Assembly (NCBI GenBank): GCA_042216335.1
Contig: JBDGTY010000012.1
Span: 1-20,908 of the forward strand
Direction: 5' to 3'
Source: Candidatus Nanohalobium sp.
GTDB lineage: Archaea > Nanohalarchaeota > Nanosalinia > Nanosalinales > Nanosalinaceae
DNA length: 20,908 nucleotides
A model generated the notes under the pieces. The model had not been told where the DNA came from. It searched no databases and saw only the letters and a program-made list of their open reading frames with translations. The position numbers and the translations under genes were made by a program. Positions 3 to 7,644 of the stretch are shown one piece after another; the first letter of the stretch is position 1; the number at the start of each line of letters is the position of its first letter.

Positions 3-104
3 CACATGAACAAGGCCAAGATGAGGATGGCAGCAGGACTACTCATGATTGTCCTCGGATGGATCCTCCTACTCTTGGCTACGGGCATCGTGAGGTTCGG
101 ATAA
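3..104 (+). CDS. 3' end of a membrane protein, truncated by the window edge (possibly CcdA/GAP-like)
   Basis: Open frame ...HMNKAKMRMAAGLLMIVLGWILLLLATGIVRFG* ends 1 nt before the next ATG; one hydrophobic helix. The family guess is weak. Confidence 0.6.
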   Translation, partial: HMNKAKMRMAAGLLMIVLGWILLLLATGIVRFG

Positions 105-5836: not shown

Positions 5837-6586
5837 TTGAGGATAGAAAACAGCTTCATAATGGCCCCAGGAATCGGAGAGAAAACCGAGAAAAAACTCT
5901 GGAAACAGGGCTACACGCACTGGGAAGACGTGGAAGACGGCAACCCCAGCGTCAGAAACAGGGAAAAAGTCGAAAACTTCATAGAAAAGGCCAGGAAAAA
6001 CCTGGAAGTCGGAAACGAAAAATTCTTCGGCACTAAGCTACCGAATAAAAGTTTGTGGCGAAGCTACCGGAACTTCGAGGACTCTGTCTGCTTCTTCGAC
6101 ATAGAAACCACCGGACTCGACAAGGACAGGAACAAGGTCACCACCATCGCGATCCATAGAGGCGGAGAAACCAAGACGTTCGTCAGAGGAGAAAACCTGA
6201 CTAGGGAGAACCTTCAGGAGGAGCTGTTCAACTCCTCGCTGCTCGTATCGTTCAACGGGAAGCGTTTCGACCATCCCTTCCTGGAACACAACTTCGACCT
6301 GGACATCGACAACCCGCACATCGACCTGATGTACATGTTCAAAAGACTGGGCTACTCCGGCGGATTGAAGAAGATCGAGAAAGACCTCGGAGTTGAAAGA
6401 GAGCTGGAGGATCTGGACGGAAGAGAGGCAGTCAAGCTATGGAAGAAGTACGAGAAAACAGGGAACCGTGAACACCTCGACAAGCTACTGAAGTACAACA
6501 GGTACGACACCGAGAACCTGAAAGAGCTGCTTGAGATAGCGCATGAAAGGCTGAGAGCAGAAGTTTTCGAGCCACATCTGGATTGA
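5837..6586 (+). CDS. YprB-like RNase H-fold (DEDD) exonuclease with N-terminal HhH-like segment
   Basis: 'PGIGEKTEKKLW', 'FFDIETTGL', 'SFNGKRFD', 'HIDL', 'GGLKKIE', 'YNRYD'. Confidence 0.88.
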   Translation: MRIENSFIMAPGIGEKTEKKLWKQGYTHWEDVEDGNPSVRNREKVENFIEKARKNLEVGNEKFFGTKLPNKSLWRSYRNFEDSVCFFDIETTGLDKDRNKVTTIAIHRGGETKTFVRGENLTRENLQEELFNSSLLVSFNGKRFDHPFLEHNFDLDIDNPHIDLMYMFKRLGYSGGLKKIEKDLGVERELEDLDGREAVKLWKKYEKTGNREHLDKLLKYNRYDTENLKELLEIAHERLRAEVFEPHLD

Positions 6587-6590
6587 GCGG

Positions 6591-6602
6591 AAAGTTTTTA
6601 AG
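6591..6602 (+). promoter_or_regulatory. Putative BRE/TATA box for the downstream RNA
   Basis: AAAG-TTTTTAAG directly after the exonuclease stop, about 25 nt upstream of the predicted RNA 5' end near 6621. Confidence 0.55.
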
Positions 6603-6620
6603 TGTAGTTCGTCAATACTG

Positions 6621-7135
6621 GCCTGAAGGAAAATGGCCTTGGTGCATGATACTGACTTCACTGGAAACATGTGGATGGCTCCGGTGAACTGCACCTATAA
6701 ACACAGGGCCAGGGCCAAATTCTCCACTATTAACTATCTGGCAGAGTAAAGCGGGATGAAGCCTTGACCTGTAGACCAGGTTAGTGGCTGACCGTGAAAA
6801 TACAAAACTTCTGGTGTGAAGCCACAGTTTCTCTGCCTCTGCAAGACACAGACAGAGTTCGTAGCTCTGTTATCGGAGGACTGTTCGGCTTCCGGGAGCA
6901 GGCTTTGCTTGAAGAGGTGAAGCCTGTTCCACGGAAATATTCTAACTCACAAAATTCAAACACAGTTTGAAAGACTTGGAAACAGGGTGAAACCTAATCA
7001 TGGATGCTAACACGCGACACTTCGAAGCCGAGTTGGAAGCACAGCACGAAGAACCGGTACAGGAAGCACGTGAGATTCACGCGGAAGCAGAAGTCGTCCC
7101 GGCAACAGCTCTTTAGATCAGCGCCGATTCCAGGC
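6621..7135 (+). ncRNA. Unassigned large structured RNA (~515 nt) with a kink-turn and an embedded short ORF
   Basis: Helices 6641-46/6690-95, 6657-65/6680-88, 6740-46/6831-37, 6851-57/6865-71, a 21-bp hairpin 6890-6936 with several G-U pairs, and 6955-61/6965-71; K-turn at 6751-63/6786-95; terminal GCCUG (6621-25)/CAGGC (7131-35). Confidence 0.7.
7000..7116 (+). CDS. 38-aa acidic peptide MDANTRHFEAELEAQHEEPVQEAREIHAEAEVVPATAL (absent from the ORF track)
   Basis: GGTGA RBS at ~6986-6990, ATG 7000, TAG 7114-16; Glu-rich like the host proteome. Confidence 0.6.
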   Translation: MDANTRHFEAELEAQHEEPVQEAREIHAEAEVVPATAL

Positions 7136-7161
7136 AAATAATAGTATGCTCCGGAGCAATT

Positions 7162-7644
7162 CTAGTTGTCCTGGAACGCTGCTGACTCAAAAGCTGCCCA
7201 GCCGTTGGCCATAGAGTCAAGTATCGATGTGAATGATCGAGCGGGTTTTATAACTTTTCTGCGGCCTTTAGAGCCTTCTCTCTCGCCGCGGTACTCCAGG
7301 TACTCGTACTTGATGACGCCCAGACGCCTCAGTTTGGGCAAAATGTTGTTCTTCAGGTTGGATTTTCCCTTTTCGTGGCCCCATTCATCGAAACTGTTCA
7401 GCTTCTCTGAATCTATCTCACCCTCGTCTTTCAGTTCTCTGAGGAATATCTTGGCGTACTTGTTCCTCTTTGGGCTCTGCTCCTCCGGGAAGAACAGGTC
7501 GACCATCTTCTCCCAGTTCCAGGCCCTGTCGCTCTTCCTGAACTTTTGCTCATCGAGAGGCAATGCCATGGAGTGTTTGGTGACGATGGTAGAGGTCTTC
7601 CGTGCGGTTTCGTCGACGAAAGGGTGTTCTTCGTCTTCTGTCAT
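7162..7644 (-). CDS. Hypothetical protein, possibly winged-helix
   Basis: 160-aa ORF with host-like composition; 'NNILPKLRRLGVIKYE' resembles a recognition helix plus wing. Confidence 0.7.
   Translation of the reverse strand: MTEDEEHPFVDETARKTSTIVTKHSMALPLDEQKFRKSDRAWNWEKMVDLFFPEEQSPKRNKYAKIFLRELKDEGEIDSEKLNSFDEWGHEKGKSNLKNNILPKLRRLGVIKYEYLEYRGEREGSKGRRKVIKPARSFTSILDSMANGWAAFESAAFQDN

Follow-up and report, generated by a model that had tools for sequence, protein, structure and literature searches.

RNAIII/hld, SgrS/SgrT and SR1/SR1P are bacterial examples of dual-function RNAs that are associated with a small protein. Structured or dual-function RNAs that encode small proteins have been described in bacteria (e.g., AzuCR) and, in the form of the spRNAs, in Methanosarcina mazei (relevant sections of PMC12612679, PMC8915982, PMC11456600 and 10.1101/2025.10.28.685009). 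In archaeal mRNAs, translation can be controlled through L7Ae and the kink-turn (pertinent parts of PMC5539422, PMC6298567 and PMC3651934), a motif that is commonly defined as a helix, a bulge of 3 nucleotides (nt), tandem G-A/A-G pairs and a second helix (cf. PMC3651934). For the transfer-messenger RNA (tmRNA, SsrA) that acts with SmpB, the defining features, as generally understood and as given in part of PMC3985003, are employed here as a yardstick. Here we analyze a 20,908-nt stretch of the genome of Candidatus Nanohalobium sp. (contig JBDGTY010000012.1 of the assembly GCA_042216335.1, positions 1 to 20,908 of the forward strand; hereinafter, the window), in which a short open reading frame (ORF), denoted sORF2, is located downstream of a conserved structured RNA that itself encompasses another, always open frame, sORF1. 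A preliminary description of this locus had placed sORF2 inside the terminal stem of an RNA with a tmRNA-like layout and had offered three readings, namely a dual-function RNA, a tagging or rescue-like RNA, and a leader-controlled micropeptide. Our analysis suggests that sORF2 is very probably an ordinary, unannotated gene that encodes a free acidic protein of 38 residues, with normal initiation at its own Shine-Dalgarno (SD) sequence and start codon.

sORF2 is predicted to encode a small acidic protein

sORF2 lies in the 575-nt gap (6587-7161) between an exonuclease gene and a convergent gene for a protein of 160 amino acids (aa). It starts with an ATG at position 7000, ends with a TAG at 7114-7116 and encodes the peptide MDANTRHFEAELEAQHEEPVQEAREIHAEAEVVPATAL. 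The GGTG at 6986-6989 is located 10 nt ahead of the ATG, and the stop codon is followed by 15 nt (ATCAGCGCCGATTCC) and then by AGGC at 7132; the coordinates of the ORF, its ribosome-binding site, the peptide and the 15-nt spacer were all given correctly in the preliminary description. The presence of such an ORF alone is not beyond chance because 48 ORFs of at least 30 aa overlap the segment 5500-8500. When the 575-nt gap was compared by blastn with 41 relatives, however, conservation emerged in two blocks, at 6624-6771 and, corresponding to sORF2, at 6986-7121.

For detailed comparison, 20 syntenic loci were fetched. The sORF2 frame is intact and located between the same two genes in all 20, its length varies between 36 and 39 aa, and every insertion or deletion comprises whole codons. 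The pairwise differences amount to 0.379, 0.213 and 0.562 for the first, second and third codon positions, respectively, and among the codon pairs that are one base apart, 1710 are synonymous and 944 non-synonymous. All four GCN codons are in use at the invariant alanines and 4-5 codons at the invariant leucines. Over the same region, RNAalifold yielded 0 consensus pairs. Taken together, the whole-codon indels, the codon pattern and the lack of a consensus RNA structure imply selection on the protein rather than on the RNA. Were sORF2 instead a conserved RNA or DNA element in which the open frame is incidental, its missing annotation in the window genome and the high nucleotide identity over its first 45 nt would be readily accommodated; nevertheless, this explanation is most unlikely given the three-base periodicity of the substitutions, the turnover of synonymous codons at invariant residues, the indel pattern, the absence of consensus structure and the SD sequence that is kept at the proper spacing.

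The translation signals are conserved along with the frame. A GGTG is found 6-13 nt ahead of the aligned start in 18 of the 20 loci, and the remaining two contain GAGGTA and GAGGAT, respectively. The aligned start codon is ATG in 13 loci and ATC, ATA or ATT, and no other codon, in the remaining seven (L008, L012, L013, L016-L019). In these seven loci, the GGTG sits exactly 6-7 nt 5' of the aligned start, and in six of them, the GTG of this word is in frame, three codons upstream, so that initiation there could involve either the shifted GUG or a near-cognate AUH codon. The gene callers applied to other genomes produced VPKI.. and MSTI.. forms of the sORF2 product. The frame, the length and the C-terminal residues of the ORF are all retained, contrary to the possibility, allowed for in the preliminary description, that it is not conserved in homologous loci. 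These comparisons establish, with high confidence, the coding status of sORF2 and the conservation of its translation signals, and sORF2 is presumably translated in vivo.

A lineage-restricted family of small proteins

The consensus of the sORF2 peptides is M-D/N-A-N-T-R-x-F-E-A-E-L-x-A-Q, followed by about 15 variable acidic residues and then by V-V-x-A-T-A-L; the conserved N-terminal motif takes the form M-[DN]-A-N-x-[RK]-x-F-E-x-E-L-x-A, and the acidic middle part is variable. Seven residues (A3, N4, F8, E11, L12, A14 and L38) are invariant in the 20 sequences, six of them within residues 3-14; in the tail, the invariant L38 is accompanied by A35 and T36, each conserved in at least 90% of the sequences. 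A profile constructed from the 20 peptides was run against 1.84 billion representative proteins with the threshold of E <= 0.001. In all 40 proteins that matched the profile, the sORF2 peptide comprises the C-terminal end; the longer matches (up to 107 aa) reflect upstream extension in an open frame, and no fusion of the peptide into a larger protein was detected among the 40. Where these homologues are named at all, they are annotated as 'hypothetical protein'.

We further surveyed 70 genomes of the phylum, in which the window genome belongs to the family f1. A full-length sORF2 without internal stops was identified in 46 of these genomes: 44 of the 49 other f1 genomes, the window genome, and a single f3 genome, probably through mis-binning of the 2.9-kb contig that carries the copy. 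The five f1 genomes that lack a copy are 68-85% complete. So far, the sORF2 family appears to be confined to one family of Nanohaloarchaeota, with relatives that include Ca. Nanohalobium, Nanosalina and Nanosalinarum. Given that the locus is present, as a single copy, in nearly every reasonably complete genome of this family, it is likely to matter for the biology of the lineage; DPANN archaea have tiny genomes, and their lineage-specific genes are mostly unexplained. Judging by the genome names (complete Nanohaloarchaea genomes, Ca. Nanosalina), relatives that carry the locus are in culture, which makes transcript mapping, peptide detection and pull-down feasible.

Weak secondary matches of the profile led to nine paralogous small ORFs of 32-47 aa in relatives (L078-L086; example sites are given in Table 1). 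All nine encompass the motif M-[DN]-[AP]-N-x-[RK]-x-F-E-x-E-[LI]; eight start with ATG and one with ATT, an SD-like word precedes most of them, and six end with a hydrophobic tail (e.g., ..LITAI or ..ALTAI). A second, paralogous match is present in 11 of the 46 genomes; the window genome has none. In two genomes, the paralogue is located between a gene for a winged-helix protein of about 100 aa (HTH_27/PadR-like) and a gene encoding a phosphoribosyltransferase domain, and in one genome, it is adjacent to an HxlR-receiver-HalX gene. These sequences suggest that the N-terminal helix motif defines a family of small proteins, six of whose nine paralogous members also possess a hydrophobic C-terminal end. 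The product of sORF2 represents a new small protein family that is so far restricted to a single lineage.

The pattern of conservation also bears on the idea that sORF2 is a regulatory upstream or leader ORF, such that the peptide is functionless and what counts is just the act of translating 7000-7116, for example because it affects RNA stability or interferes with the convergent gene. The ORF is indeed short, and it is placed between the end of a structured RNA and a highly conserved convergent gene, with the two stop codons separated by 8-115 nt. However, purifying selection acts on the amino acid sequence, with roughly twice as many synonymous as non-synonymous changes, paralogues encoded elsewhere contain the same conserved motif, and there is no same-strand gene downstream to be controlled; we consider this explanation very unlikely.

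An AlphaFold2 model of the peptide built from 45 sequences contains a helix at residues 5-16, with the rest of the chain in coil (mean predicted local distance difference test score, pLDDT, of 66.5). We propose that sORF2 is translated from its own SD sequence as a free small acidic protein, in which two short conserved ends would carry the function, namely the N-terminal amphipathic helix, with the motif M-[DN]-[AP]-N-x-[RK]-x-F-E-x-E-[LI], and the hydrophobic C-terminal tail; the variable acidic segment would act as the linker between them. Through these two ends, the small protein would dock onto a larger protein and modulate its activity. Docking of this kind appears to be the most likely mode of action, as with other proteins of this size.

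Several observations weigh against the interpretation of sORF2 as a gene for a free functional protein. In one of the loci without an ATG (L017), there is no in-frame alternative start within 6 codons, so that the assignment of the start there is tentative. The exact sORF2 product of the window is absent from the protein collection, as gene calling passed over this ORF in the window genome. The peptide has no match in Pfam or NCBIfam and no homologue with a known function, and the ESM Atlas search gave no usable match. Confidence in the structural model is moderate, and most of the chain is coil. A search of sequencing runs for the words of the locus returned, as the sole run that contains most of them (0.93), a DNA run from a salt-lake metagenome, and there was no RNA run among the matches. 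Finally, a winged-helix gene adjoins the small ORF at the main locus and in three of the six paralogue contexts, but this adjacency is weak evidence of a functional link because such genes are common in archaea.

The locus lacks the sequence hallmarks of tmRNA

The tagging reading holds that the ends of the RNA pair into a tRNA-like module that is charged and enters stalled ribosomes, whereupon the peptide is added as a degradation tag. The resemblance that underlies this idea consists of a short internal ORF, placed toward the 3' end of a region of structured RNA, and of a peptide with A-N close to the N-terminus, an acidic body and a conserved hydrophobic tail (..ATAL, with L38 present in all 20 sequences), which in a tag would be the candidate protease-recognition signal. 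Nevertheless, neither the window nor any of the 20 loci contains a tRNA or tmRNA that ARAGORN could detect. Searches against Rfam 15 gave no match at the gathering score in the window, only a single, unrelated 11.5-bit chance match to a long non-coding RNA at E <= 10 over 6400-7400, and no match at E <= 0.1 in the 19 homologous loci. Reservations had accompanied the tmRNA comparison from the outset, among them that a canonical T-arm is missing and that the ORF possesses a ribosome-binding site and an ATG of its own.

The proposed terminal stem does not hold up, either. The best duplex between the 5' region of the RNA and the 70 nt after the sORF2 stop is no better than those in shuffled sequences (the window has z = -0.50, and just two of the 20 loci fall below -2). 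The conserved structured RNA that was invoked together with this stem is real, but its conserved structure ends before the ORF. The word CGAUUCC, which had been compared to the 3' side of a T-loop, or any other T-loop-like word is present after the sORF2 stop in just one of the 20 loci, the window itself, and the strand taken for the 3' closing strand belongs to a local hairpin between the convergent genes. The sequence 3' of the sORF2 stop is unconserved among the 20 loci, and the distance to the stop of the convergent gene shrinks to only 8, 10 and 15 nt in three of them. Further evidence against a tag comes from the peptide and from the genome. sORF2 has its own conserved SD sequence and start codon; conservation of the peptide is no weaker at the N-terminus, which holds six of the seven invariant columns, than in the tail; and its paralogues are not accompanied by the RNA. 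The window genome (about 1.02 Mb, 96.2% complete) yielded no match to SmpB (PF01668), whereas the control search was positive in 10 bacterial genomes; the archaeal rescue factor Pelota, in contrast, was identified (216.4 bits, above the cut-off). As far as sequence goes, the tagging idea is refuted, and we regard it as vanishingly improbable; hence the locus does not challenge the view of archaea as devoid of trans-translation. The other two readings, a dual-function RNA and a leader-controlled micropeptide, may still apply given the conserved RNA upstream.

A conserved structured RNA upstream of sORF2

Upstream of sORF2, there is a conserved structured RNA that is supported by covariation and matches no Rfam family. 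A TATA-like box, preceded by a purine-rich stretch that resembles a B recognition element (BRE), is located such that, in the loci inspected, its 3' end is 25-30 nt ahead of the ATG at 6633. By the usual spacing rule, this element would serve as the promoter for the structured RNA, with transcription predicted to start at about 6625. The covariance model of the 5' domain, R1, scores 170.9 bits in the window and has one match per genome in 44 of the 70 genomes. The domain consists of the stem P-a (6634-6642 with 6703-6711) and the hairpin P-b (6657-6665 with 6680-6688), followed by a kink-turn-like hairpin. In an alignment of 28 sequences, 86% of the cells of the 5' domain and the kink-turn hairpin are paired, compared to 27-48% when the pairing partner is slid along the alignment; given that the structure was partly derived from the same 28 sequences, this slid control is flattering. 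The counts of compensatory changes are unaffected by this circularity: such changes occur in 20 of the 34 pairs, and none of 500 shuffles reached the observed values.

In the kink-turn-like hairpin, the G-A and A-G positions are invariant among the 28 sequences and the 4-base-pair (bp) stem is either invariant or covarying; the position after the GA/GA is unpaired in 23 of the 28, and all eight pairs of the distal stem show compensatory change. The window genome encodes L7Ae (PF01248, 93.4 bits). By its sequence, the hairpin conforms to the kink-turn pattern and is a candidate L7Ae-binding site.

A variable middle part separates the 5' domain from the hairpin H4. The H4 stem is paired in 96.3% of the cells, compared to 39-55% for slid versions, with compensatory changes in 10 of the 15 pairs, and the covariation score of 0.664 (0.310 for shuffled alignments) was not reached in any of 500 shuffles. 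The frequent G-U pairs in H4 indicate that the RNA is encoded on the plus strand. The loop of H4 (6907-6919) is near invariant, with the consensus GCUUGCAAGGUG (GCUUGAAGAGGUG in the window). It contains the SD-like word AGGUG and the palindrome CUUGCAAG. This loop might serve as a standby site or a protein-binding site, or it might form a kissing loop. The short conserved element that immediately follows H4 (Table 1) may be a weak internal promoter for sORF2 or a U-rich element.

Several more specific assignments were considered and rejected. The RNA is not the RNase P RNA, for which there is a candidate elsewhere in the genome (C48:1305-1644, 34.2 bits against the Rfam gathering cut-off of 84), nor the signal recognition particle RNA, for which the candidate is also located elsewhere (C38:13072-13347, 84.7 bits against the gathering cut-off of 96.5). 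H4 cannot be construed as a terminator together with a T run because a run of at least five T's is present at 6931-6946 in only one of the 20 loci. A pyrimidine-rich loop (CCUCU or CACC) that might act as an anti-SD sequence does not co-evolve with the SD of sORF2 (-9.18 kcal/mol for cognate and -8.86 kcal/mol for non-cognate combinations) or with the SD-like H4 loop (-10.19 and -10.13 kcal/mol, respectively), and the cognate ranks are spread evenly.

The frame sORF1, which overlaps both P-a and P-b, opens exactly at, or close to, the predicted start of the transcript. Among 31 distinct sequences, it contains no stop in any, whereas each of the other frames has at least one stop in all 31. It terminates at one fixed site, by TAA in 20 sequences, TAG in 7 and TGA in 4, and this stop codon is 1 nt ahead of the kink-turn stem; sequences that have lost the aligned ATG possess another one in frame, two codons upstream. 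The differences per codon position are nevertheless flat (0.265, 0.349 and 0.346), with 682 synonymous and 1449 non-synonymous codon pairs, and the product has no match in Pfam or NCBIfam. This pattern suggests that the sequence is constrained as an RNA but nonetheless retains a translatable frame, possibly a leaderless regulatory one.

The RNA also contains mutually complementary words, GGCCUUGG, CCAAGGCC (doubled) and GCCUUGGCC, at 6634-6642, 6703-6719 and 6760-6768, respectively. The alternative pairing of these words would dissolve both P-a and the kink-turn hairpin and is chosen by at least 6 of the 28 minimum-energy folds of single sequences; it may represent a conformational switch.

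One transcript or two

The 5' domain is located 200-250 nt upstream of sORF2, and only one of the 20 loci contains a run of at least five T's anywhere from the start of the RNA to the stop of sORF2. Thus, no oligo-T stop separates the RNA from sORF2 in 19 of the 20 loci, which favors read-through into sORF2. On sequence grounds, it is about equally likely that the RNA is a long structured leader of sORF2 or that it is a gene of its own, with sORF2 served by a weak internal promoter.

If the leader arrangement is correct, one regulated dual-function or bicistronic transcript, about 490 nt long, could extend from about 6625 through sORF2. Its fold, and with it the output of the small protein, would then depend on the translation of sORF1 and on the binding of a protein to the kink-turn; the RNA might additionally act in trans. 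The only strong, conserved TATA-like box is that upstream of the RNA, and the scarcity of T runs, the covariation-supported structure and the common distribution of the RNA and the peptide fit such a transcript, as do the persistently open sORF1, with all three stop codons in use and its lost start replaced in frame, and the complementary words (GGCCUUGG, CCAAGGCCAAGGCU and GCCUUGGCC) that permit the alternative pairing. However, the BRE/TATA-like element right after H4 could be a separate promoter for sORF2, sORF1 evolves as an RNA rather than as a protein, and the loop and the SD sequence show no co-evolving pairing. Furthermore, there are paralogues of the peptide even though the RNA model matches only once per genome, which implies that the peptide does not need the RNA in cis. 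We therefore treat the single-transcript scenario as a tentative one, which may well turn out to be wrong. A still more elaborate version, in which the locus is a new kind of regulatory RNA of about 490 nt, appears rather unlikely: here, the leaderless sORF1 in the folded 5' domain would end a single base ahead of a kink-turn of the L7Ae type, ribosomes passing along the frame would compete with protein binding at the kink-turn and thus switch the fold, and this switch would control sORF2, the product of which would work with the winged-helix protein.

The convergent gene and the genomic context

The convergent gene encodes a 160-aa protein that is 75-93% identical across the family, compared to 60-90% for the exonuclease on the other side of the gap. 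Contig breaks aside, this gene, sORF2 and the RNA share the same distribution among genomes. The AlphaFold2 model of the protein (pLDDT 67.8) consists of a winged helix-turn-helix and a long C-terminal helix; the first 42 residues are predicted to be disordered and yet are conserved. The best Foldseek matches of this model are regulators of the PadR/LmrR group, and these are weak (E of 0.01-0.1, template modeling (TM) score of 0.33-0.57). The protein belongs to no Pfam or NCBIfam family, a sequence search of the PDB returned 0 matches, and in the ESM Atlas, it matches only unnamed archaeal clusters and one cluster of the AF_0843 family (0.91). As a co-inherited neighbour, this winged-helix protein is the first candidate for the partner of the sORF2 product, although a doubtful one. 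Complex prediction for the 160-aa protein and the peptide gave ipSAE values of 0.00 and 0.00, which we count neither for nor against this pairing.

The hairpin between the convergent genes has parallels at other loci: short, G+C-rich inverted repeats with unrelated sequences are located 3' of the sORF2 stop also in L005, L007, L014, L016, L017, L019 and L020. Such intergenic repeats may serve as two-way transcript ends. Other genes near the locus encode an archaeal histone, a family B DNA polymerase, a pilin and GrpE. There is no assembled 16S rRNA in the window genome. The coordinates of the features of the locus are collected in Table 1.

Table 1. Features of the sORF2 locus (window coordinates) and example sites of paralogues in related genomes (genome:contig:positions)
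Feature	Positions	Strand	Basis
RNase_H_2-type exonuclease gene, upstream neighbour	5837-6586	+	PF13482, E = 4.8e-43
TATA-like box TTTTTAAG, with a purine-rich BRE-like stretch ahead; putative promoter	6595-6602	+	TTWTAAA or TTTTAAG conserved in 20 loci
RNA 5' domain	6629-6800	+	Covariance model R1, compensatory changes
sORF1, 38 codons in the window (35-43 overall)	6633-6749	+	Open in all sequences
Kink-turn-like hairpin, GCGG / bulge GAU / GA / AGCC ... GGCU / GA / CCGU; candidate L7Ae site	6751-6795	+	Sequence pattern, 28 sequences
Hairpin H4, 15 bp, with a conserved 12-13-nt loop	6894-6930	+	Covariation
CCGGAAC/CACGGAA followed by an A/T-rich hexamer	6931-6946	+	Conserved in alignment
Shine-Dalgarno-like GGTGA	6986-6990	+	Conserved GGTG before sORF2
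sORF2, predicted gene for a 38-aa acidic small protein	7000-7116	+	Conserved frame, coding substitution pattern, profile matches
Local inverted repeat/hairpin CCAGG...CCTGG around GCTCCGGAGC, between the convergent genes; includes the formerly proposed 3' closing strand	7130-7174		
Convergent 160-aa gene, predicted winged helix-turn-helix	7162-7644	-	AlphaFold2 model, weak Foldseek matches
Example paralogue	G009:C1:836895-836993		
Example paralogue	G021:C1:678586-678684		
Example paralogue	G011:C3:16116-16214		

The whole locus is also found in two genomes with unexpected names, namely L105, on a 2.9-kb contig (G039:C114) of a metagenome-assembled genome (MAG) titled Ca. Asbonarchaeaceae, and L109, in a MAG titled Colwellia polaris. 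At these two loci, the identity for the 160-aa protein is 85-86%. Mis-binned contigs are the more likely source of these copies, rather than gene transfer. Searches of the literature on non-coding RNAs and on small proteins and proteomes of Nanohaloarchaeota, at the level of titles and abstracts, revealed nothing on this locus, which is not proof of absence.

Comparison with known systems

With tmRNA/SmpB (described in part of PMC3985003), the locus shares a short ORF tied to a structured RNA and a peptide that ends in small hydrophobic residues. Unlike tmRNA, it shows neither a tRNA-like domain nor paired termini, SmpB is missing from the genome, and Rfam and ARAGORN yield no match; moreover, sORF2 is equipped with an SD sequence and a start codon rather than entered at a resume codon, and neither the conserved N-terminus of the peptide nor the paralogues that are free of the RNA fit a tag.

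The similarity to L7Ae-kink-turn control, as it is presented in the cited parts of the literature, consists of a kink-turn-like hairpin in a probable mRNA leader and of an L7Ae gene in the same genome. The difference lies in position: here, the kink-turn, which is a candidate site defined by sequence, comes right after the stop of sORF1, about 200 nt ahead of the sORF2 SD, and not at the SD or the start codon.

Compared to the dual-function RNAs, again as far as the cited sections describe them, this locus shows no sequence relation and belongs to a DPANN archaeon, and both the shared transcript and any base-pairing are only putative here. Nevertheless, the layout is alike: a peptide of less than 50 aa, predicted to be amphipathic, is encoded next to, and possibly on, a conserved structured RNA that is several times longer than the ORF.

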